DNA from: an uncultured archaeon
GTDB lineage: Archaea > Asgardarchaeota > Lokiarchaeia > Sigyniarchaeales > SOKP01
Length of the DNA: 64,000 nt
Assembly: GCA_964409945.1 (NCBI GenBank)
Contig: CAYPFJ010000007.1
Span: 18,635 to 82,634, forward strand
Reading direction: 5' to 3'
Part shown: positions 16,893 through 63,608 of the stretch, one piece after another
Layout of the letters: each line of letters opens with the position of its first letter
How positions within the stretch are numbered: the stretch's first letter is position 1
Made by a program: the position numbers and the translations under genes
The notes under the pieces: generated by a model
The model's database searches: none
The model's input: only the letters and a program-made list of their open reading frames with translations
Told to the model about the DNA's origin: nothing

Positions 16893-18143
16893 ATGGCATT
16901 GACTCCATTTGAAATAGCAAAAAAGCAAATCGATATTGTTGCTGAAGAAATGGGATTAGATCCTAATATAGCGAAATATCTTAAGAGAGTTGAGAGAGCA
17001 TTAATAGTTACTATCCCTATTAGAATGGATAATGGATCTATGGAGATTTTCGAAGGTTATAGGGTTCATCATAGCACAGTTAGAGGTCCTGGAAAAGGGG
17101 GTATAAGATATTCTCCAGAAGTTAATTTAGATGAAATCAAAGCATTAGCTACATGGATGACATGGAAGTGTAGCCTTTTGAATTTACCATTAGGTGGTGC
17201 TAAAGGGGGTGTTTGTGTAGACCCTAGAAAGTTATCTAAAAATGAATTAGAACGCCTTACGAGAAGGTATACTTCTGAAATAATTAACATAATTGGGCCT
17301 GATATTGACATCCCTGCTCCAGATGTTAATACTAATGCTCAAGTCATGGCTTGGATTATGGATACCTATTCAATGAATAAGGGAAGGTCTATCCCTGGAG
17401 TTGTTACTGGTAAGCCTATTGAAATAGGAGGTTCTGTTGGTAGAGAACCTGCTACGGGAATGGGATTATTTTTCGTATTAGAAGCTCTATGTGAAAAGTT
17501 AAGTATAGACTTGAAATCACAAAAAATAGTAATTCAAGGGTTTGGTAATGTAGGTGGAACCATTGCTGGATTATTATATAATGAAGGATGCAAGGTAATG
17601 GCTATTTCGGACATATCTGGTGCTCTATATTTTTCTGAAGGATTGGAAATTGATAAATTACTAGAATGGACTCAACAAGGAAATTATTTAAAAGATTATA
17701 AAGATAAGAGATATAAATTAATTACAAATGAAGAATTACTTGCTTTAGAATGCGATATTTTGATTCCAGCTGCTCTTGAAAATCAAATAACATATAAAAA
17801 TGCTGATAATATCAAATGTAAAATTATATTGGAAGGAGCTAATGGCCCTGTTACACCTGAAGCAGATAGAATTCTGTTTGAAAAAGAGATTCGTGTATTA
17901 CCAGACATTCTTGCTAATGCTGGTGGTGTTTGTGTTTCTTATTTTGAATATGTTCAGGATATCAGAGCTTATTTCTGGGAATTAGATAGAATTAACAAGG
18001 AATTAAAAAAGATAATTTTAAGGGCTTTTGAAGAAGTATATATGCTTTCGAAAGAAAGAAAAATCTCTCTTCGTACAGCTGCTTACATTATTGCCGTCAG
18101 TAGGATTGCTAGAGCGATTGAACTTAGAGGAATATTTCCTTAA
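16893..18143 (+). CDS. gdhA: Glutamate dehydrogenase
   Basis: GPGKGGIRY, catalytic-Lys motif LPLGGAKGGV, Rossmann motif GFGNVGG, EGANGP. 416 aa. Confidence 0.9.
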   Translation: MALTPFEIAKKQIDIVAEEMGLDPNIAKYLKRVERALIVTIPIRMDNGSMEIFEGYRVHHSTVRGPGKGGIRYSPEVNLDEIKALATWMTWKCSLLNLPLGGAKGGVCVDPRKLSKNELERLTRRYTSEIINIIGPDIDIPAPDVNTNAQVMAWIMDTYSMNKGRSIPGVVTGKPIEIGGSVGREPATGMGLFFVLEALCEKLSIDLKSQKIVIQGFGNVGGTIAGLLYNEGCKVMAISDISGALYFSEGLEIDKLLEWTQQGNYLKDYKDKRYKLITNEELLALECDILIPAALENQITYKNADNIKCKIILEGANGPVTPEADRILFEKEIRVLPDILANAGGVCVSYFEYVQDIRAYFWELDRINKELKKIILRAFEEVYMLSKERKISLRTAAYIIAVSRIARAIELRGIFP

Positions 18144-53374: not shown

Positions 53375-53953
53375 ATGGAAAAATCCAAAATATTAATTGC
53401 GTATGGCACTCGTTATGGAGCAACAGCTAGTACTGCTGAAGAAATTGCTAAAGTTCTTCGAGATGAAGGATTTGAGGTAAAAGTTGTAAATCTCAAGGAA
53501 GAGAAGGTCAAAGATATCACAGAATATGAACTCGTTATTATTGGAAGTGGAATGAAAATGAATATGTGGACGAGAAAAGCTAAAACATTTTTGAACAAGT
53601 TTAGCTCTGAGCTCAAGAATAAGAAAGTGGCAATCTTTGTATCTTCAGGTGGGCGAGCACTCATGGAATATAAAGGAGAACATGATGAGATTAGTAGAAT
53701 TACTAAAAAATATCTTGAAGATAAAGCTTCTAAATATGATTTGAATCCAATATCGATGACCATGTTTGGAGGTATCTGGGATTATAATCAGATGGGTAAT
53801 ATTTATAGAAAAATCTTAGATTCTGAAAAAGAAAATTTCATTCCAGCAGGTTTTAAGGAAACAGAGCCAGGAGTTTACGATTCAAGAAATTGGGATGAAA
53901 TTCGTAAATGGGCTAAAGATTTAGCGAGTAAGATACGAAACAACCCAAAATAA
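53375..53953 (+). CDS. Flavodoxin-domain protein (Flavodoxin_5/HemG-like)
   Basis: KILIAYGTRYGATASTAEEIAKVLRDEGFEVKVVNL and VIIGSGM. 192 aa. Confidence 0.7.
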   Translation: MEKSKILIAYGTRYGATASTAEEIAKVLRDEGFEVKVVNLKEEKVKDITEYELVIIGSGMKMNMWTRKAKTFLNKFSSELKNKKVAIFVSSGGRALMEYKGEHDEISRITKKYLEDKASKYDLNPISMTMFGGIWDYNQMGNIYRKILDSEKENFIPAGFKETEPGVYDSRNWDEIRKWAKDLASKIRNNPK

Positions 53954-54097: not shown

Positions 54098-56278
54098 ATG
54101 ATTCTAGCAGAGAAGAAATATGAAATCCAAGATGTCCAAAAAGGCTATGCAAATCGGACCTTATATATCAATCTTTCTAAAAATGAGATTGTTATAAAAC
54201 CAGTTTCTGATGAAATGAAAGAAAAATTCATCGGGGGGAAGGGTTTTGATTTATGGTTAATGTGGAATTCAATTCCGAAAGATAAAGCAATTAAGTGGGA
54301 TGATCCTGAAAATGAAATATGTATATCCTCTGGACCATTAGGAGGGAGTATTTTTTATCCGGGATCAGGTAAATCATTGGTGACTTCAATTTCTCCCTTA
54401 ACAGGTATAATTGTGGATAGCAATGTAGGTGGTTACTTTGGACCATATCTTAAATTTTCTGGATTTGATGCTATTGAGATTCAAGGAAAAGCTGAACATA
54501 ATGTGATTATATATATCGATGGAATAGAAGGATCAATCCATATAAAAAAAGTAGAATATTCGGATGGATTTTCAGAATATTCCCATGAACTCACTCAACA
54601 ATTAACAGAAAAATATGCGAAAGATGATGCTGAAAAAAGACAAATTTCAGTTGTTAGCTCTGGTCCCGCTGCTAAACACTCAAAATGGGGGATGCTTAAT
54701 TTTTCTTGGTATACAATAACGCGTAAACATGCTTCTGTTAAGCAAGCCGGCAGAGGGGGGATAGGATCTGTATTTAGTGATAAACATATAAGAGCACTAG
54801 TTTGTCGTTCTCCTAGAGTAACAATAAAATCAAATAATCCCGCAGACTTAGAGGCTGCTAGAGAGTTGGGAAGAATTCATAGCAAAGAAATTGTAGAAAT
54901 GGATCCTTCACAAAATGAAATGAGAAGAGTTGGAACGGGTTATTTGCCAGATATAATGAATGTTGTGGATCTTCTTCCAACTGAAAACTTTCGGTATGGA
55001 TCTCATAAAGAGATTAAAGATAAAAATATACCATATAATCGTGAAGAGATGCGTAAAGTTTACCATGTTAAAGAAGGAACAGATGGATGTTGGATTGGAT
55101 GCACAATGAGTTGCTCACATTATACTCTTGGACATAAAGTTATGACTGGTCCATTTAAAGGGCAAGAAGTTATAGTTGAGGGACCAGAATATGAGACAAT
55201 AGCGGGATGTGGGTCAAATTGGGGTGTTTGGGATATAAAATGGGTACTAGAAACAAACTTTTACTGTGACACTTATGGATTAGACACAATTTCAGTAGGT
55301 ACTGGAATTGGTTTTGTGATGGAATGTTATGAAGAAGGCATAATAAATAAAAAGATCACAGGAGGACTTGAACTGAATTTTGGAAATGCTGAAGTTGCGT
55401 TAGAATTAATACACCAAATGGCCTTAGGAAAAGGATTTGGTCTTATAGTTGGTAAAGGAATAAGGGAAATGAAAAAATATTTCGCTGATAATTATGGTGC
55501 AGATCCTCAATTTCTACAGGATATTGGAATGGAACATAAAGGGTTAGAATTCTCAGAATATATAACAAAAGAGTCCCTCGCTCAACAAGGAGGATATGGT
55601 TTAGCACTAAAAGGGCCACAACATGATGAAGCTTGGTTAATTTTTGAAGATATGGTGAGAAACACAATTCCAACTTTTGAGGATAAAGCTAAGGCACTTC
55701 GATGGTTTCCCTATTGGCGTACTTGGTTTGGATTAAATGGTCTATGTAAACTTCCTTGGAATGATGCGATAGGACCTCAAAATAAGGAGCTTCCTGTGAA
55801 AAATCCTAAAACAGGAGAACTCCTACAAGCAAGGATACCTTACCATGTTGAATGGTATGCGAAATATTTTTCAGCGGTTACAGGGAGAAATTCAACTCCT
55901 GATAATCTCATAGTAATGTCGGAAAGAGTATACAACTTCCAAAGAATTTTCAATATAAGATTAGGTCAAGGGTTGCGTGAAGGGGATTCAAATTTCCCTT
56001 ATAGAGCAATGGGACCAGTAACACCATTAGAATATGAGAGTCGCCAAGAAAGATATGATACTCAACTTAAAGAATTAGGATTTGATATATCTGATAAAAA
56101 TACAGATGAAAAGATAAAAATTCTAAGAAAGCATCGTGAGGAACAATATTCAAAACTTCAAGATGCAGTCTATAAAGAACGCGGATGGAATCAAAATGGG
56201 TGTCCAACAATCGATAAAGTTGAAGAGTTAGGAATTGATTATGAAGATGTCGTAAAATTCATAAAACCTCATCAATGA
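54098..56278 (+). CDS. aor: Aldehyde:ferredoxin oxidoreductase family (tungstopterin) enzyme, long 726-aa form
   Basis: GYANRTLYINLSKNEIVIKPV..FIGGKGF N-domain, EGPEYETIAGCGSNWGV, DTISVGTGIGFVMECYEEG. Confidence 0.85.
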   Translation: MILAEKKYEIQDVQKGYANRTLYINLSKNEIVIKPVSDEMKEKFIGGKGFDLWLMWNSIPKDKAIKWDDPENEICISSGPLGGSIFYPGSGKSLVTSISPLTGIIVDSNVGGYFGPYLKFSGFDAIEIQGKAEHNVIIYIDGIEGSIHIKKVEYSDGFSEYSHELTQQLTEKYAKDDAEKRQISVVSSGPAAKHSKWGMLNFSWYTITRKHASVKQAGRGGIGSVFSDKHIRALVCRSPRVTIKSNNPADLEAARELGRIHSKEIVEMDPSQNEMRRVGTGYLPDIMNVVDLLPTENFRYGSHKEIKDKNIPYNREEMRKVYHVKEGTDGCWIGCTMSCSHYTLGHKVMTGPFKGQEVIVEGPEYETIAGCGSNWGVWDIKWVLETNFYCDTYGLDTISVGTGIGFVMECYEEGIINKKITGGLELNFGNAEVALELIHQMALGKGFGLIVGKGIREMKKYFADNYGADPQFLQDIGMEHKGLEFSEYITKESLAQQGGYGLALKGPQHDEAWLIFEDMVRNTIPTFEDKAKALRWFPYWRTWFGLNGLCKLPWNDAIGPQNKELPVKNPKTGELLQARIPYHVEWYAKYFSAVTGRNSTPDNLIVMSERVYNFQRIFNIRLGQGLREGDSNFPYRAMGPVTPLEYESRQERYDTQLKELGFDISDKNTDEKIKILRKHREEQYSKLQDAVYKERGWNQNGCPTIDKVEELGIDYEDVVKFIKPHQ

Positions 56279-56315
56279 ATATTCTTATTCTTAATAATTT
56301 TTAATTAGATTCCAG

Positions 56316-58400
56316 ATGGAATATATAGCAAAACACCCCATTTTAGAAATAACAGAGAAAAAAAAAGTTACTTTTAATTTTGATGGGAAAAAGTTAACTG
56401 GCTTTGAAGGAATGGTTATATCTTCAGCACTTTTCCTAAATAAAATAAAGATTTTTGGCCACCATATAAAAGACAATAGTCCACAAGGTATATTTTGTGC
56501 AAACGGACAATGTGCTCAATGTAATGTAATCGTAAATGGTATTCCAGTAAAAGCATGTATGACTCCTCTTAAGGAAGGTATGATAATAGAAAGTTGTAAT
56601 GGCTTACCAGAATTACCTCCTGAAGATAATGCTGTAACTGTAGGAGATTCTAAAATTGTTGAAACTGAAGTGCTTGTAATTGGTGCGGGTCCAGCAGGAT
56701 TATCAGCTACAAAAATATTAGGTGAGAATAATATTGAGGTGATCCTAATAGATGACAAAGCTGAACTTGGAGGAAAATTAGTGCTTCAGACTCACAAATT
56801 TTTTGGTTCTCAAGAAGAAGTATATGCTGGTAAACGTGGCATAGATATTGCTAAAATTTTGGGAAAATCTGTTGAAGTTATATCAAATGTTCAAGTTTGG
56901 TTGAATAGTGTTTGCCTAGCAGTTTTTAGCGATGGTTTAATTGGTATTTTAATAAATAATGAAGAATATGCATTGATAAAACCTAAGTATTTACTAATTG
57001 CTACTGGTGCTAGAGAAAAAATGTTAGTTTTTCCAGGAAATACATTACCAGGCGTTTATGGAGCAGGAGCCTTTCAAACTCTGGTAAATCGTGATTTAAT
57101 AAAAGCAGCAGATAAAATCTTCATAGTTGGTGGAGGTAATGTAGGTTTGATAGCAGGATATCATGCAATCCAAGCTGATATAGAAGTTGTAGGTTTGATT
57201 GAAGCTTTACCTCATTGTGGTGGATATAAAGTTCATGCGGATAAACTTAGAAGGTTAGGTGTTCCAATCTATACAAGTCATACTATTATTTCAGCTAATG
57301 GTAATGAAGATGTTAAGTCTATAACAATAGCACAAATTGATAAAGATTTTAAGATTATATCTGGAACGGAAAAATCTTTTGCTTGTGATACTATTTTAAT
57401 TGCTGTAGGATTAAATCCTGTTGACGAATTTTATCATAAGGCAAAGGAATTTGGATTTAGAGTTTGGGTAGCAGGCGATGCTCAAGAAATCGCAGAAGCT
57501 TCAGCTGCAATATTTACGGGTAAGATTGAAGCTTTTAAAATTTTAAAAGAAATTGGAGTTAAGTTTTTAGAAAATATTGAGGAGATGGAAGATTTTGCTG
57601 AAGTAATGAAAGCAAAACCACCACAACCTATTGAAACAGAAATTAAATTTAAAGAAGAAGGAGTTTATCCTGTTTTTTATTGTAACCAAGAAATTCCTTG
57701 TAATCCGTGTACTACTGTATGTGATCAAGAGCAGATTGAAACTTTTGATAATTTAATTACCCAATTGCCATATTTTAAGGGTGAAAAAGAATGTTTCGGA
57801 TGTGGAAAATGTGTAGCTGTCTGTCCTGGATTAGCAGTTGTATTAATTGATTATCGAAAAGATAAGGATAATCCATTGGCTACTTTTCCATTTGAACTTA
57901 GTGGAGAGAAATTAGAAAAAGGGCAAAATATTATCGTAGTAAGTAATGAAAAAGAGCTAGGGATATTTGAAATTCATAGATCTCGAATATTAAAAGAATT
58001 TCCTAAAACTCAACTCATAAGCGTTAAATTACCTTCAAATATTGCACAACAAGCTATAGGAATTAAACTTTATAAATCAAAATTCAATGAACCAATTGAT
58101 TTATACCATGAAGCATTAACAGACGATGAAACAATAGTATGTAGATGTGAACGTGTGTCAGTAGGAGAAATTCGAAAGTGGATTCAATCAGGTGTTAGAG
58201 ATTTCAATGAGTTAAAAGCATTGACAAAAGTAGGAATGGGAGCTTGTGGAGGTAAAACCTGTACTCCTCTAATTGAAAGAATATTCAGAGAAGAAGGTAT
58301 ATCAATGGATGAGATTACCCCAGGTACAAAACGCCCTCTCTTTATAGAAGTCCCAATGGGTATTTTTGCTAATACGAAAAATAATAAGGAGGAGCTGTAG
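56316..58400 (+). CDS. Multidomain Fe-S flavoprotein: N-terminal 2Fe-2S (Fer2_4) + FAD/NAD(P) pyridine-nucleotide-disulfide oxidoreductase + 4Fe-4S motif + BFD-like 2Fe-2S; HcnA+HcnB / opine oxidase A / archaeal proline dehydrogenase alpha-like
   Basis: FCANGQCAQCNVIVNG..KACMT; VLVIGAGPAGLSA; FIVGGGNVGL; CFGCGKCVAVCPG; CRCERVSVGEIRKWI..GMGACGGKTC. Confidence 0.7.
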   Translation: MEYIAKHPILEITEKKKVTFNFDGKKLTGFEGMVISSALFLNKIKIFGHHIKDNSPQGIFCANGQCAQCNVIVNGIPVKACMTPLKEGMIIESCNGLPELPPEDNAVTVGDSKIVETEVLVIGAGPAGLSATKILGENNIEVILIDDKAELGGKLVLQTHKFFGSQEEVYAGKRGIDIAKILGKSVEVISNVQVWLNSVCLAVFSDGLIGILINNEEYALIKPKYLLIATGAREKMLVFPGNTLPGVYGAGAFQTLVNRDLIKAADKIFIVGGGNVGLIAGYHAIQADIEVVGLIEALPHCGGYKVHADKLRRLGVPIYTSHTIISANGNEDVKSITIAQIDKDFKIISGTEKSFACDTILIAVGLNPVDEFYHKAKEFGFRVWVAGDAQEIAEASAAIFTGKIEAFKILKEIGVKFLENIEEMEDFAEVMKAKPPQPIETEIKFKEEGVYPVFYCNQEIPCNPCTTVCDQEQIETFDNLITQLPYFKGEKECFGCGKCVAVCPGLAVVLIDYRKDKDNPLATFPFELSGEKLEKGQNIIVVSNEKELGIFEIHRSRILKEFPKTQLISVKLPSNIAQQAIGIKLYKSKFNEPIDLYHEALTDDETIVCRCERVSVGEIRKWIQSGVRDFNELKALTKVGMGACGGKTCTPLIERIFREEGISMDEITPGTKRPLFIEVPMGIFANTKNNKEEL

Positions 58401-59567
58401 ATGGTTGAATATGATGTAGTTATTATTGGAGCCGGTAGTGTTGGAGTTCCTACAGCTTTAGCTACTGCAAATGAAGGATTAAAAACTTTAGTAATTGATT
58501 CATTACCATCAGTAGCACAAGCAGACAACAAACATGCTATTGGTGGTATTAGAGCTACTCACTCCCATAAAGGAAAAATATGGCTATGTCAAAGATCAAT
58601 AGAAATTTTCTCTTCTTGGGAAGAAAAATATGGAGATGATATTTGGTGGTCTCAAGGGGGTTATACATTCTTATCATATACTAAAGAACATGAAATTTTG
58701 TTAAAAGATACTGTAAAACTTCAAAAAAGTTATGGTCTAAATATCAACTACGTTGATGCTGAGAAAATTAAAGAGCTAATACCAGGCATAAATAATGATA
58801 ATTTATTAGGTGGTACATATAGCCCTGAAGATGGAAATGCTTCTCCATTGTTATCATTACATGCTTTTTTTCGCCGATCAAAAGCTTTAGGTGCTAATTA
58901 TCATTTTAATGAAAAAGTTATAGATATTTTAACTCAAAATAATAAAGTTATTGGTATACAAACGACTAAAGGTCAATACAAAACCCAATCAATTATTAAT
59001 GCAGCTGGTGCTCATGCTAAAGAAATTAGTGATATGATTGGTATAAATACAACAATAGAACCAGAATCACATGAAGCGGGAATAACAGAACCAGTAAAAA
59101 ATTTCTTTAAGCCAATGATCGTAGACATTAGATCTTGTTCTGATCCTAAATTTGGAAACTCTAAAAACTATTATTTCTACCAAAATAAAGAAGGTAAAAT
59201 TATTTTTTGTTTGACTCCTGAACCGAATAATCCAGGAATGGATCGTCGCGAAACCAGTTTATTTTTACCTCAGATTTCAAAAAGAATGATACAACTTCTA
59301 CCTCGTTTAAGAAATATAAAGATAAGAAGAACTTGGCGTGGTTTATATCCGATGACTCCTGATGGGAATCCAATTTTAGGTAACGTAAATGAAATTGAAG
59401 GATATATCAATGCTGTTGGGATGTGTGGTCAAGGATTTATGCTAGGACCGGGATTAGGAGAACTTCTCAATCGTATTTTGACAGAAAAAATAAACTTTAA
59501 GGATAAAGAGATTTTAGAAACTCTTTCTTATTCTCGCGATTTTGGTATTGAAGAAGAATTGAAATAA
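58401..59567 (+). CDS. FAD-dependent oxidoreductase, DAO family (sarcosine oxidase beta / HcnC / proline dehydrogenase beta-like)
   Basis: YDVVIIGAGSVGVPTALATA dinucleotide fold. 388 aa. The ATG directly abuts the upstream stop (tagATG). Confidence 0.75.
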   Translation: MVEYDVVIIGAGSVGVPTALATANEGLKTLVIDSLPSVAQADNKHAIGGIRATHSHKGKIWLCQRSIEIFSSWEEKYGDDIWWSQGGYTFLSYTKEHEILLKDTVKLQKSYGLNINYVDAEKIKELIPGINNDNLLGGTYSPEDGNASPLLSLHAFFRRSKALGANYHFNEKVIDILTQNNKVIGIQTTKGQYKTQSIINAAGAHAKEISDMIGINTTIEPESHEAGITEPVKNFFKPMIVDIRSCSDPKFGNSKNYYFYQNKEGKIIFCLTPEPNNPGMDRRETSLFLPQISKRMIQLLPRLRNIKIRRTWRGLYPMTPDGNPILGNVNEIEGYINAVGMCGQGFMLGPGLGELLNRILTEKINFKDKEILETLSYSRDFGIEEELK

Positions 59568-59655: not shown

Positions 59656-60588
59656 ATGGTTCGACATTTATTAAAAGTCTCAGATTTTTCAAAAGAAGAG
59701 TGCGAGAACGTCATTAATAAAGCAATTGAGGTAAAGAAAAATTCTAAAAAATTTAGCTCTGAATTAGAAGGAGAGACATTATTAATGCTATTTGAGAAAC
59801 CCTCTTTAAGAACCCGCATTTCATTTGAAACTGGAATGCAACAATTAGGTGGACATGCTATTTTTTATTCTATAAAAGACTCTCCCTTAGGTAAAAAGGA
59901 AAACATTTCTGATACAGCAAAAGTTGCGTCTAGATTTGTAAATATTATTGCAGCTCGTGTATTTAAACGCCAAGACGTCTGGGATCTAGCTAAATATGCT
60001 GATGTTCCAGTTATAAACATGCTCGATGATTTTGCACACCCCTGCCAAATTCTAGGCGATTTTCAGACTATTAAAGAGAAAAAGAACAATTTAAGAAACA
60101 TGAAACTCTCTTATTTTGGAGATGCTCATAATAATGTTACATATGATTTAATGAGGATGTGTGCCATATTTGGCTGGAGAATGGATGTTGCTTGCCCTAA
60201 TGCTCTGCAATATTCGCCAGAAGAAATAGTGTTAGAGGAAGTTTCAGATCTGTCAAAAGAAACCGGTGCTGAAGTAAAAATTATTCATGATGCTATAGAA
60301 GCAGCTCGAGATGCAGATGTTATATATACTGATAGCTGGATGTCGTATGGGATTCCTCAAGAACAGGAACAACAACGTAAAAAAGCATTTATGCCATTTC
60401 AAGTTACATCATCAGTCATGAAAAAGGCAAAATCAGACGCAGTTTTTATGAATTGTCTACCAGCAATGAGAGAGTATGAACAAACCACAGGAGTAATTGA
60501 TGGTCCTCAATCGATTGTTTTCGATCAAGCAGAAAATAGACTACATATCCAAAAAGCAATTATGTTATTTTTACGTGAGAAATTTTAG
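59656..60588 (+). CDS. argF: Ornithine carbamoyltransferase family protein (divergent ornithine-site motifs)
   Basis: FEKPSLRTRISFE, HPCQILGD, DSWMSYG (canonical D.W.SMG), FMNCLPA (canonical HCLP). 310 aa. Carbamate kinase lies nearby. Confidence 0.7.
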   Translation: MVRHLLKVSDFSKEECENVINKAIEVKKNSKKFSSELEGETLLMLFEKPSLRTRISFETGMQQLGGHAIFYSIKDSPLGKKENISDTAKVASRFVNIIAARVFKRQDVWDLAKYADVPVINMLDDFAHPCQILGDFQTIKEKKNNLRNMKLSYFGDAHNNVTYDLMRMCAIFGWRMDVACPNALQYSPEEIVLEEVSDLSKETGAEVKIIHDAIEAARDADVIYTDSWMSYGIPQEQEQQRKKAFMPFQVTSSVMKKAKSDAVFMNCLPAMREYEQTTGVIDGPQSIVFDQAENRLHIQKAIMLFLREKF

Positions 60589-60625: not shown

Positions 60626-60653
60626 ATGTGTGTGTATGTATATATATATACAT
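60626..60653. repeat. (TG)n/(TA)n low-complexity microsatellite
   Basis: atgtgtgtgtatgtatatatatatacat immediately upstream of the vapB-like ATG. Confidence 0.7.
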
Positions 60654-60902
60654 ATGACTTCTAAAAATATTAGTATAACTGAAGAAGTGTATAAGAAATT
60701 AATGAAAATTAAAGGAAAGAATGAAAGTTTTTCTGAGCTTTTCTTAAGATTATTAAAAATTCAAAAGAGTAAGATGGAAAAAAGCTTTGGAGCATGGAAT
60801 CTTTCAGAAAAGGAGAAAAATGAGATTTGGGATGACATTACAAATCGTCCTGGGCGTATTTGGAAAAAATCTGAATTAAGGGATATAAATGATAATTCTT
60901 GA
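60654..60902 (+). CDS. vapB: VapB-type antitoxin (small archaeal 'predicted antitoxin' family)
   Basis: MTSKNISITEEVYKKLMKIKGKNESFSELFLRLL is the typical N-terminal RHH-like segment. It overlaps the PIN gene by 14 nt. Confidence 0.6.
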   Translation: MTSKNISITEEVYKKLMKIKGKNESFSELFLRLLKIQKSKMEKSFGAWNLSEKEKNEIWDDITNRPGRIWKKSELRDINDNS

Positions 60903-61296
60903 TACTTCTGCATGTATTGAATATTTAAATGGTAATGAAAGAATTAAAAACATTATCTCTAAACAAGAAGATCTAATCCATATTACAGCAATTACGGTTT
61001 ATGAAATTAATATTGGTTTAGAACATACAAAAAGAAAAATTTCTGAAAAAAGATATAGGGAACTTTATAAAATGTGGACGGAATTTATTAGTAGTATGGA
61101 AATCTTCCCTTTAGGATATAAAGAAGCTGAAAAAGCCGCACAAATATGTGATATTCTCGAGTCTAAAGGTCAAATAATCGATGACAACGATATATTAATT
61201 ATTGGTATTATGCTTTCAAATGGTATAAATAAAATTATAACTAAAAATGTTAAACATTTCGGAAAAATCGAGAGTATTGAACTTATTCCATACTGA
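60889..61296 (+). CDS. vapC: PIN-domain ribonuclease toxin VapC
   Basis: MIILDTSACIEYL (first acidic residue), ..TVYEINIG.., ..DDNDILIIG... 135 aa. Confidence 0.75.
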   Translation: MIILDTSACIEYLNGNERIKNIISKQEDLIHITAITVYEINIGLEHTKRKISEKRYRELYKMWTEFISSMEIFPLGYKEAEKAAQICDILESKGQIIDDNDILIIGIMLSNGINKIITKNVKHFGKIESIELIPY

Positions 61297-61425: not shown

Positions 61426-62343
61426 TTGAAAACTTTAATAGTAGCTCTTGGTGGGAATGCTTTAATAAAGTTTGGGGAAGAAGGTACAACAGAGGAACAA
61501 TTTCGGAATCTTAGAGTTCCTATAAGCCAAATTGCGGAATTAGCAAAAAACTATAATATTATTATAACTCACGGAAATGGTCCACAAGTTGGAAATCTCT
61601 TATTACAACAAGAGGGAACTGAATTTGTATCAAAAAGGCCATTACAAATACTAGTAGCAGAAACTCAGGGCCAGATTGGTTTTATGATTGAAAGTACTTT
61701 AGATGAGGAGCTCATGAAAATAGGGCTGGATGAAGAAAAACTTTTTCTAACAGTTCTAACTTACGTTAAGGTTGATCCAAAAGATCCTGCTTTTATGAAT
61801 CCTACGAAACCAATTGGACCTGCTTATCCTGTCCGTACTAAACATGGTCAAGTGAAAACAACCAAAGGCTGGCGACGAGTTGTACCATCTCCTAAGCCAA
61901 AAAAAATTTATCAATGGCGTGAAATAAAGAAACTCATGGAATTAGGAAGTTGGATTGTAATAGCCTGTGGTGGTGGTGGGATACCTGTTATAAAAGAAGA
62001 GAAGAAGTTATATGGAGTCGAAGCCGTCATAGATAAAGATCTTGCAAGTTCAAAATTAGCTGAGCAAATTGAAGCAGATATTCTTCTTATTGCTACTGAT
62101 ATTGAGAGAGTTGCGATAAATTACGGGAAACCAGATCAAGAAGATTTAGAAAATCTTTCTGTATCTGACGCAAAAAAATATTTAAAAGAAGGCCAGTTTC
62201 CCGTCGGAAGTATGGGTCCAAAAATTCAAGCAGTAATAAATTTTATGGAAGCGGGAGGAGAAAAAGCTATAATTACTTCTATTGAAAAGATAAAAGAAGC
62301 ATTAGAAGGAAAAGCTGGGACTCAAATAATTTTAGATAAATAA
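61426..62343 (+). CDS. arcC: Carbamate kinase; TTG start
   Basis: (M)KTLIVALGGNAL, ITHGNGPQVG, ACGGGGIPV. There is no ATG/GTG/TTG between the upstream in-frame TAA (61309-11) and the TTG at 61426. Confidence 0.85.
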   Translation: MKTLIVALGGNALIKFGEEGTTEEQFRNLRVPISQIAELAKNYNIIITHGNGPQVGNLLLQQEGTEFVSKRPLQILVAETQGQIGFMIESTLDEELMKIGLDEEKLFLTVLTYVKVDPKDPAFMNPTKPIGPAYPVRTKHGQVKTTKGWRRVVPSPKPKKIYQWREIKKLMELGSWIVIACGGGGIPVIKEEKKLYGVEAVIDKDLASSKLAEQIEADILLIATDIERVAINYGKPDQEDLENLSVSDAKKYLKEGQFPVGSMGPKIQAVINFMEAGGEKAIITSIEKIKEALEGKAGTQIILDK

Positions 62344-62345
62344 TT

Positions 62346-63608
62346 TTATTGTTTTACAAACACTTTTTCTATAATATCAATAGCCCAATCAATTTCTTCT
62401 CTTGTTATTACCAACGGAGGAGCAAATCGAATGATAGTAGAGTGAGTATCTTTTGCTAAAATTCCATTGTCCTTTAATTCCTCTACAATCTGTCTGGCAT
62501 CTTCCTCAAATTCAACAGCGATTAATAATCCTTTACCTCTAACTTCTTTAATTGGAATTCTAGTTTTCTTCTCAGCAACTTCCTTTAATCTTTTCAAAAA
62601 ATAAGCACCCATTTTCTTAGCACGTTCTGCTAAATTCTCTCGTAGGTGAATATCTATTGATTTCATACCAATTGCCGCTGCTAAAGGATTACCGCCGAAA
62701 GTACTTCCATGTGTACCAGGTTTTATCACATCAGGACCAATGATCTCTTGTGTACTTACACACGCAGAAACTGGATATACTCCACCTCCAAGAGCTTTAC
62801 CAAGCAATAACATATCTGGTTTCACATCTTCATGATCGCAAGCAAAGAATTCTCCAGTTCTTCCGAATCCTGTTTGAATTTCATCCAGAATCATTAAAAT
62901 TTGATATTTAGAACAAATTTCTCTAACTTTTTTTAAATAACCTTCTGGAGGAATTTTTACACCAGCTTCTCCTTGGATAGGTTCTACTAAAAAAGCAGCA
63001 ATTTTTTCAGGACCAGTTTCTAATATTTTGTGTTCTAATTCTTTAGCATCTCCATAGGGTATAATTATGAAACCAGGTGTATAAGGTCCAAAATTTCCAT
63101 AATATCGAGCTGCAGAAATATCAGAACTAAAACCTACAATAGTAATGGTTCTTCCGTGAAAATTGTCTCTACAGACTATTATTTTCGCTTCATTTTTTGG
63201 AATCTTTTTTTTAATATAACCCCACGCTCGAGCTACCTTTAAACCTGTAGAAACAGCTTCCGTTCCTGTATTCATAGGAATAGACATTATGCCAGAATTT
63301 TTTGGGTCATTAATATGTGGTCCAACAACTTCAGCTAACATTTTTAAAAAAGGTCCCATCATATTATTATGAAAAGCTCGAGATGTTAGTGTTACAATAC
63401 TTGCTTGTTCTTTTAACGTTGCAACAATTTCGGGATGACAATGACCCACATTCTGACTTGAATATGCTGATAAACAGTCTAAATATTTCTTACCTTCCGG
63501 ATCATAAACCCAAACTCCTTCTGCTCGTGAAATTACAACGGGAATTGGGTGATAATTATGAGCGCAATATTTATTATCCATCTCAATAAAGTCTTTTGAA
63601 GTTGGCAT
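62346..63608 (-). CDS. rocD: Ornithine aminotransferase (class III PLP aminotransferase)
   Basis: YHPIPVVISRAEGVWVYDPEGKKYLDCLSAYSSQNVGHCHP, DEIQTGFGRTG, PLP-Lys context LLLGKALGGG. Confidence 0.8.
   Translation of the reverse strand: MPTSKDFIEMDNKYCAHNYHPIPVVISRAEGVWVYDPEGKKYLDCLSAYSSQNVGHCHPEIVATLKEQASIVTLTSRAFHNNMMGPFLKMLAEVVGPHINDPKNSGIMSIPMNTGTEAVSTGLKVARAWGYIKKKIPKNEAKIIVCRDNFHGRTITIVGFSSDISAARYYGNFGPYTPGFIIIPYGDAKELEHKILETGPEKIAAFLVEPIQGEAGVKIPPEGYLKKVREICSKYQILMILDEIQTGFGRTGEFFACDHEDVKPDMLLLGKALGGGVYPVSACVSTQEIIGPDVIKPGTHGSTFGGNPLAAAIGMKSIDIHLRENLAERAKKMGAYFLKRLKEVAEKKTRIPIKEVRGKGLLIAVEFEEDARQIVEELKDNGILAKDTHSTIIRFAPPLVITREEIDWAIDIIEKVFVKQ

Follow-up and report, generated by a model that had tools for sequence, protein, structure and literature searches.

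A 64,000-nucleotide stretch of an uncultured Lokiarchaeal (Asgard) genome from salt-marsh sediment (contig CAYPFJ010000007.1 of assembly GCA_964409945.1; hereafter the window, ~30% G+C) contains a gene island in which a tungsten-type aldehyde oxidoreductase (AOR) of 726 amino acids, AOR-726, stands beside a flavoenzyme related to the L-proline dehydrogenases of Thermococcales (Table 1). The AOR gene is separated by 37 nt from the gene for an iron-sulfur (Fe-S) flavoprotein, here called alpha, and the gene for beta, a flavoprotein of the DAO family, abuts that of alpha with zero gap. A flavodoxin gene precedes these three, and genes for ornithine carbamoyltransferase (OTC), carbamate kinase (CK) and ornithine aminotransferase (OAT) follow them, each scoring above its NCBIfam cut-off. 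An initial annotation of the region from its letters alone (the sequence-only reading) had described these open reading frames (ORFs), their spacing and their domains, all of which were recovered by an ORF map and by Pfam and NCBIfam searches. It had also counted glutamate dehydrogenase (GDH) among the neighbors, a description that applies only loosely to a gene lying 37 kb from the cluster (positions 16893-18143). Its central proposal was that the flavoenzyme oxidizes proline, or some other secondary or D-amino acid, to pyrroline-5-carboxylate (P5C) or its open form, glutamate semialdehyde (GSA), and that the AOR then oxidizes this aldehyde to glutamate in place of an NAD-dependent P5C dehydrogenase (P5CDH). 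Comparative genomics backs the core of this idea and indicates that the link between the AOR and alpha-beta is not obligate.

The best matches of AOR-726 among solved structures are the AOR (1AOR; 1e-50) and the formaldehyde oxidoreductase (FOR; 8e-45) of Pyrococcus furiosus. Its 4Fe-4S cysteines (Cys331, Cys335 and Cys339 in a Cx3Cx3C motif, together with Cys550) are invariant among 14 aligned orthologs, as are T280, E366, Y488 and H509, which align with Thr243, Glu313, Tyr427 and His448 of the P. furiosus AOR (PfAOR). These four second-shell residues mark the aldehyde-oxidizing members of the tungsten oxidoreductases (WORs) (PMC13328260) and are missing in the YdhV/BamB clade (PMC12096430). 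Their conservation therefore identifies AOR-726 as a predicted tungsten pterin enzyme of the aldehyde-oxidizing type, not of the YdhV/BamB type. Membership in the YdhV/BamB clade is likewise discounted by the YdhV model PRK09849, which reaches 110 bits against a cut-off of 868 and covers the N-terminal domain only.

Like PfAOR and FOR, which belong to WOR Class I, AOR-726 is a member of the two-domain fold family, retains the 4Fe-4S cysteines and second-shell residues, and has no adjacent polyferredoxin gene in the window; the flanking Fer4 (WorS polyferredoxin) gene by which the multisubunit WOR Classes II-V, whether or not they also have WorABC or membrane subunits, are recognized (PMC13328260) was not found there. 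Unlike the P. furiosus enzymes, AOR-726 is ~100-120 amino acids longer, carries Cx3Cx3C instead of CxxCxxxC, belongs to a clade of its own, reaching phmmer E-values of no better than 1e-50 to 1e-45 against the solved AOR and FOR, and sits in what appears to be an amino-acid operon. By its sequence AOR-726 belongs to a distinct AOR clade: in a phylogenetic tree it forms with its orthologs a tight group on a long stem, and among the 17 AOR-family loci of its own genome, none of the other 16 shares more than 30% identity with it. One ortholog, in a genome of a sister family (G089), has a 130-aa polyferredoxin gene directly upstream (L033:8441-8833), an arrangement that fits ferredoxin-type electron transfer.

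Alpha is a mosaic of four Pfam-defined parts: Fer2_4 (residues 16-95), Pyr_redox_2 (118-375), a 4Fe-4S region (460-505) and Fer2_BFD (607-659). Its motifs comprise Cys-x4-Cys-x2-Cys-x11-Cys at 61-81, two GxGxxG sites corresponding to FAD and NAD(P) Rossmann folds, two Cys4 motifs at 456-469 and 493-503, and CxC...Cx4C at 609-649. All 16 cluster-binding cysteines are invariant across 24 homologs from Asgard archaea and bacteria. An AlphaFold model of alpha (pLDDT 86) finds 1Y56_A as its best Foldseek match (E = 1.9e-30; TM 0.80 by target), with SoxA also close. 1Y56 is PDH1 of Pyrococcus horikoshii, one of the heteromeric dye-linked L-proline dehydrogenases of Thermococcales, an alpha4beta4 enzyme composed of PH1363 and PH1364. 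The alignment with PH1363 covers alpha residues 10-260, 367-417 and 605-685, and the two proteins have in common a gamma-like domain at the N-terminus, a pair of dinucleotide-binding motifs and, at the C-terminus, a CxC...Cx4C domain. Unlike PH1363, which lacks the N-terminal 2Fe-2S cysteines in the alignment, the island alpha keeps all four, and it also contains an insert of ~187 amino acids (418-604) that bears the two Cys4 motifs. Alpha is thus built like PDH1 alpha, except that its N-terminal cluster is intact and that it has gained a ferredoxin-like insert.

This insert may correspond to the separate ferredoxin-like PdhF of PDH2. In the PDH2 of T. profundus, an alpha-beta-gamma-delta enzyme, PdhF (gamma) and PdhX (delta) are separate polypeptides, whereas the island cluster has no small-subunit genes and its Fe-S modules are built into the 694-aa alpha. 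The sequence-only reading had pointed to this fusion and had stated that the modules are separate polypeptides in described systems. That is only partly so, as both PH1363 and SoxA already carry a gamma-like N-terminal domain and PH1363 a BFD-like domain as well; what is a separate gamma subunit in the opine and D-hydroxyproline dehydrogenases has its counterpart in the N-terminal ~120 residues of L-proline dehydrogenase alpha (PMC4575208). The fusion is also widespread, and many anaerobic bacteria have an alpha of equal make-up and ~690 amino acids that is 52-57% identical. The closest homologs of alpha (76-90% identity) are all from Asgard metagenome-assembled genomes, mostly Lokiarchaeota/Promethearchaeota, but fused full-length relatives with 42-57% identity occur in Desulfobacterales, Anaerolineae, Cloacimonadota, Bipolaricaulota, Thermotogae, Acidobacteriota (Ca. 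Saccharicenans), Thermoplasmatota and Heimdallarchaeia, and species-representative genomes contain more than 575 alpha-type stretches. Fused alpha is therefore no Asgard peculiarity; it is a biochemically uncharacterized architecture that is widespread in anaerobes.

Split forms of alpha exist as well, and so do larger fusions, including alpha with beta. Three natural fusions join alpha to an N-terminal flavodoxin (P0124), to a Fer2/polyferredoxin/FlpD (MvhD-like) module (P0125) or to an inserted GltD/NfnB-like module (P0129), and hint at low-potential or bifurcation-type electron partners. The flavodoxin domain of P0124 was considered as kin of the flavodoxin in the window and set aside for lack of specific similarity. 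Transcriptome data for Cantina marsupialis, an anaerobic protist, include a full-length alpha homolog (P0126; 711 aa, ~48% identity), which the eukaryote could have acquired by gene transfer or which could stem from contaminating prokaryotes.

Beta, too, resembles PDH1. Its alignment with 1Y56_B reaches 1.3e-53 over residues 5-362, against 5e-22 for the next solved match, glycine oxidase, and ~1e-21 for SoxB. Like the PDH1 subunit it is a DAO-type protein with an R-x-W motif, and PDH1 provides the best match of the island flavoenzyme in both sequence and fold. The R-T-W of beta aligns with the R-T-W of PH1364, at what is a putative FMN site of the alpha-beta interface (PMC4575208). Beta adjoins alpha in nearly all loci that have room for it.

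More distantly, alpha and beta belong to the same alpha/beta(/gamma) superfamily of Fe-S flavoenzymes with two 2Fe-2S motifs as HcnABC, the flavin opine dehydrogenase OdhABC and the D-hydroxyproline dehydrogenase LhpBEF (PMC4575208). The island enzyme differs from these in its fused gamma, its extra ferredoxin-like insert and its strictly anaerobic host, and the products of HcnABC, OdhABC and LhpBEF (HCN and 2-oxo acids) are not AOR substrates. It also differs from SoxABGD, in which alpha has ~965 amino acids with a C-terminal folate-binding domain and is accompanied by gamma and delta; alpha here has 694 amino acids without soxG or soxD, and it matches the soxA model only at positions 163-424 of the model's 996, with 156 bits against a cut-off of 1164.

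The sequence-only reading had proposed conservation of the gene order as a check. Within a sample of 201 Asgard genomes, in which AOR orthologs were defined by at least 56% identity, an AOR ortholog is present in 95, alpha in 44 and OAT in 66. Counts from genomes that are related to one another are not independent and serve here as description. Nearly all alpha-positive genomes (42/44), across families, also have OAT. The AOR and alpha genes are adjacent, with a spacer of 24-49 nt, in ~20 of the 201, which represent four genera of the family of the window and one genome of a sister family (G165). Close relatives keep the order flavodoxin-AOR-alpha-beta-OTC-CK/OAT. Genomes of genera g1 and g4 either carry the whole island or lack it altogether, which marks it as accessory. 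In two cases of the sampled set a ThiC gene lies between AOR and alpha. Such an insertion (~1.4 kb), known from some close relatives (L001:6659-7930, also G132 and L051), breaks the otherwise tight spacing. Downstream of beta, at L002:12051-12804 and L003:5949-6702, short pieces of an OTC N-terminal domain (81 aa) and of a DAO protein (184 aa) resemble what a duplication or rearrangement within the island would leave behind.

The adjacency recurs in sulfate-reducing bacteria. A scan of species-representative genomes with an alpha alignment returned 80 loci, which were then searched with the window proteins. The order GntR-alpha-beta-AOR on one strand was found at 18 Thermodesulfobacteriota loci (Desulfobacterales, Desulfosarcina, Desulfatibacillum and Desulfatiglandales), and at two more loci of this phylum AOR and GntR lie upstream on the opposite strand, divergent from alpha-beta. 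Together with the Asgard order, the pairing thus occurs in three gene orders and two domains of life. The bacterial AORs linked to alpha-beta are full-length and 55-62% identical to AOR-726 over ~720 amino acids, and only three loci of the same bacterial group with adequate flanks are missing the AOR. In the bacterial modules a GntR/FCD regulator gene lies upstream and LivK-type amino-acid ABC transporter genes accompany some loci. A proC gene that passes TIGR00112 stands beside 11 of them, in two distinct positions, and a gene of the ornithine cyclodeaminase (OCD)/mu-crystallin family lies upstream of four.

In the alpha tree the AOR-linked sequences occupy three places, namely a Loki clade, a Desulfobacterales clade and, in another major clade, the alpha of locus L125. 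The AOR of L125 groups with the other bacterial AORs while its alpha stands apart from their alphas, which implies at least one separate pairing event. This locus, from Desulfatiglandales, also has two beta paralogs after a single alpha (L125:10073-12763), an arrangement that recalls the 'subunit exchange' of opine dehydrogenases (PMC4575208).

The island extends beyond the AOR and the flavoenzyme into arginine and ornithine metabolism (Table 1). Upstream of the flavodoxin gene lies a gene for a 446-aa protein with homologs annotated either as 'predicted GTPase' or as 'cyclic 2,3-diphosphoglycerate synthase'. The same two names are carried by homologs of the arginine synthetase TK2200 (ArcE), which have been reported in Lokiarchaeota and make up for a missing arginine deiminase (ADI) in holders of carbamate kinase (Michimori et al., PMC11032458). 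Judged by these names, the protein is probably an arginine synthetase that converts arginine, ADP and Pi to citrulline, NH3 and ATP. The ArcE-like gene lies directly upstream of AOR in L052, L054, L062 and L063, so that the AOR is embedded among arginine-pathway genes and not at the edge of the island. With these loci and the bacterial ones, the view of the adjacency as an accident of one family, with the AOR at the island edge, is overturned.

Table 1. Genes of the island and their position in the window.
Feature	Position	Strand	Basis of assignment
ArcE-like protein, 446 aa	50065..51405	+	no Pfam/NCBIfam match; homologs' names
Flavodoxin-fold protein, 192 aa, possible electron acceptor	53375..53953	+	Flavodoxin_5, 1.7e-19
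AOR-726, tungsten-type aldehyde oxidoreductase, 726 aa	54098..56278	+	AFOR_N 5.7e-47 + AFOR_C 5.6e-93
Alpha, Fe-S flavoprotein, 694 aa	56316..58400	+	Fer2_4, Pyr_redox_2, 4Fe-4S region, Fer2_BFD
Beta, DAO-family catalytic flavoprotein, 388 aa, L-proline-dehydrogenase-like	58401..59567	+	DAO, 7e-57
Ornithine carbamoyltransferase (OTC)	59656..60588	+	NF001986, 372.6 vs cut-off 306
VapB/VapC toxin-antitoxin pair, outside the pathway	60630..61296	+	PIN domain + VapC models
Carbamate kinase (CK)	61426..62343	+	TIGR00746, 381.7 vs cut-off 358
Ornithine aminotransferase (OAT)	62346..63608	-	TIGR01885, 527.7 vs cut-off 378

The content of the genome, estimated to be 100% complete, bears on the direction of these reactions. 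It has no match to the ADI family and neither ArgG nor ArgC above cut-off, which argues for a catabolic role of OTC and CK and rules out a biosynthetic one. ProA, ProC and OCD were not found in the genome either, and the lack of these three together with ArgG and ArgC points to auxotrophy for proline and arginine, or to unconventional routes. No canonical P5CDH, which the sequence-only reading had named as potential evidence against its proposal, was found: the best aldehyde dehydrogenase (ALDH) reaches 307 bits against a cut-off of 648 (models NF002852 and TIGR01237), and none of the 201 Asgard genomes has an ALDH above this cut-off. The product of OAT would therefore be a dead end unless another enzyme acts on it. 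An ALDH of ~545 amino acids that covers the whole P5CDH model with 360-400 bits, below the cut-off of 648, is present in several Asgard genomes (G045, G133, G127, G086, G027, G165 and others) and may represent a divergent form of P5C dehydrogenase; the family of the window showed no such ALDH. In bacteria, P5CDH-like ALDHs of ~545 amino acids occur both with and without AOR adjacency, and none passes the P5CDH cut-off.

Taken with family membership, on which the individual steps rest, these observations lead us to propose that the island is an accessory catabolic unit of a Lokiarchaeal fermenter that takes arginine, citrulline, ornithine and proline to glutamate. The ArcE-like enzyme would convert arginine to citrulline with formation of ATP, and OTC and CK would convert citrulline to ornithine and carbamoyl phosphate and recover a second ATP. 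OAT would transfer the amino group of ornithine to 2-oxoglutarate, yielding glutamate and GSA, the latter in equilibrium with P5C. In parallel, alpha-beta, as an enzyme of the Thermococcales L-proline dehydrogenase type, would oxidize L-proline to P5C with FAD in beta, FMN at the interface, and an Fe-S chain and NAD(P) site in alpha. The single-subunit AOR-726, presumably co-transcribed with alpha-beta, would then oxidize GSA to glutamate and reduce ferredoxin or the product of the adjacent flavodoxin gene, standing in for the NAD-dependent P5C dehydrogenase.

We assign a probability of roughly 0.55 to the proposal that AOR-726 is a ferredoxin-linked glutamate-semialdehyde oxidoreductase within this arginine/ornithine/proline island. 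It is supported by the recurrence of the linkage in three gene orders, by the proline and P5C genes in the neighborhood, and by the lack of another outlet for the OAT product. There is also a precedent among relatives, as FOR binds glutarate and has been put forward as an enzyme for C5 semialdehydes (PMC12096430). A functional link of one kind or another between the AOR and alpha-beta is likely.

Several observations weigh against GSA as the substrate or against a fixed partnership. The enzyme BjOpnDH2, which is near the L-proline dehydrogenase subfamily, is inactive on proline (PMC4575208), and closeness to that subfamily therefore does not fix the substrate of alpha-beta. The genome encodes two generic ALDHs that could oxidize GSA; their best match is a lactaldehyde dehydrogenase, and neither passes a model cut-off. 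Among the 80 loci, no AOR was found next to alpha-beta in Anaerolineae, Cloacimonadota, Bipolaricaulota, Saccharicenans or other phyla, and in four of the five alpha-beta bacteria that were checked an AOR-726 ortholog is absent from the whole genome. The bacteria in which the AOR is linked are akin and the module may have moved among them as a unit, so that the linkage events are few, three or four and not twenty. Within the Asgard archaea, families f5 (Heimdall-type, e.g., Ca. Heimdallarchaeum aukensis) and f22 have AOR, alpha-beta and OAT, yet scattered, whereas 34 of 43 family f7 genomes have an AOR-726 ortholog and none has alpha, beta or OAT; genera g2, g6 and g8 likewise hold AOR-726 orthologs without alpha or OAT.

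These distributions argue for regarding AOR-726 as a general aldehyde-detoxifying or acid-reducing enzyme that merely neighbors alpha-beta, in a block spread by inheritance and transfer. Away from alpha-beta the neighbors of AOR-726 orthologs are mixed (Arf GTPase, MoaE, ferredoxin and PNPOx-like genes), with no conserved neighbor found in other Asgard families. Alpha-beta for its part is self-sufficient in many bacteria, the genome has 17 AOR-family loci, and no AOR-alpha fusion was found among the best 150 representative clusters. Mere proximity nevertheless accounts poorly for an adjacency that is kept in three gene orders and two domains of life, for tight and conserved spacers, for the L125 locus, where the AOR has as its partner an alpha from another clade, and for the several Loki loci that place the AOR between the ArcE-like gene and alpha-beta-OTC-CK, and we regard it as unlikely. 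We give no better odds to a coupling through a different aldehyde, in which beta would oxidize another secondary amine and hydrolysis of the imine would free the substrate of the AOR. Candidates are sarcosine and other N-methyl amino acids (releasing formaldehyde), pipecolate (2-aminoadipate semialdehyde) and D-hydroxyproline (2-oxoglutarate semialdehyde after deamination). Substrate specificity is labile in this flavoenzyme family and has shifted repeatedly (PMC4575208). Alpha lacks the formaldehyde-trapping folate-binding domain of SoxA, so that a free aldehyde would need an oxidoreductase, and the OCD-family neighbors could be cyclodeaminases or reductases of pyrroline-2-carboxylate or piperideine-2-carboxylate (Pyr2C/Pip2C). 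Against this, beta is far nearer to PDH1 beta than to SoxB or glycine oxidase, and the OAT and proC neighbors point to P5C. The hydroxyproline route in particular is disfavored here, since the genome has no gene of the proline-racemase/hydroxyproline-epimerase family, and every ORF of the cluster is assigned with no DapA-type deaminase among them.

A coupling of redox rather than of metabolites, or of both, appears quite improbable, although it would address an energetic difficulty. The P5C/proline couple lies near -120 mV, at which potential the oxidation of proline to NAD(P)+ or ferredoxin would be uphill for a fermenter. With an acid/aldehyde couple near -500 mV (PMC13328260), low-potential electrons from the AOR could drive alpha-beta backward, from P5C to proline, which would amount to a dismutation of P5C. 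By electron confurcation, a variant to which we attach similarly long odds, low-potential electrons derived from GSA and high-potential electrons derived from proline would be combined in alpha's Fe-S chain and at its NAD(P) site and exit together as NAD(P)H. The second Rossmann site and four clusters of alpha, the natural alpha fusions with flavodoxin, MvhD/polyferredoxin or GltD-like modules, and the failure to find ProC in the genome are consistent with such schemes. On the other hand, alpha-beta functions without an AOR in many lineages, and ProC accompanies alpha-beta in most genomes of the same family; in genus g4, which often has alpha-beta too, ProC is present in 16 of 16 genomes. Alpha-beta is therefore not a general substitute for ProC, and that role is ruled out. 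Were confurcation nonetheless to operate, hydrogen-producing syntrophs, Asgard archaea among them, would have a feasible way to oxidize proline.

PutA, or the pair of proline dehydrogenase and P5C dehydrogenase, carries out the same two-step chemistry that is proposed here, from proline through P5C/GSA to glutamate. Neither island enzyme, however, is homologous to its canonical counterpart, and in the second step a tungsten pterin enzyme would pass electrons to ferredoxin or flavodoxin, where the canonical route has an ALDH that reduces NAD+. No AOR partner has been described for the Thermococcales proline dehydrogenases. The arginine branch resembles ArcE-ArcB-ArcC of T. kodakarensis (PMC11032458, PMC13260591) in combining OTC and CK with an ArcE-like 'putative GTPase' gene in the absence of ADI; it differs in that the genes are clustered with OAT, the proline-dehydrogenase-like pair and the AOR, which would extend the pathway from ornithine to glutamate. 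A search of the literature, including that on Asgard archaea and Lokiarchaeota, returned no paper that links AOR/WOR enzymes with proline dehydrogenase or glutamate semialdehyde or that describes the pairing found here, and a 2026 classification of the WORs makes no mention of proline, flavodoxin or Asgard archaea.

If the proposal is true, the route from arginine, ornithine and proline to glutamate would yield two ATP by substrate-level phosphorylation along with four reducing equivalents, of which two would be of low potential. This would bear on the amino-acid life of Lokiarchaeia and of marine sulfate reducers, and on how the metabolism of the archaeal partner in eukaryogenesis is modeled. 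A physiological role has been defined for only five of 92 tungsten oxidoreductase clades (PMC13328260), and a conserved operon partner in two domains, together with a candidate substrate, would give one more of them a testable function.

The remaining features of the locus concern its layout and surroundings. A T-run lies downstream of the flavodoxin gene, and a flavodoxin gene also stands upstream of AOR in L001, L005 and L053 but is missing in L002. The VapBC pair between OTC and CK is not at that position in L004, L005 and L049. The sequencing runs that contain the region are all salt-marsh metagenome DNA, with no RNA run among them. To the right of the window, on the strand of OAT, lies a complete lysine-fermentation cluster (L040:1365-10967, minus strand), in which KamA, KamD/KamE (lysine 5,6-aminomutase), the reactivase KamB, Kdd and Kce each exceed their NCBIfam equivalog cut-off, and which places the island in a setting of amino-acid catabolism.

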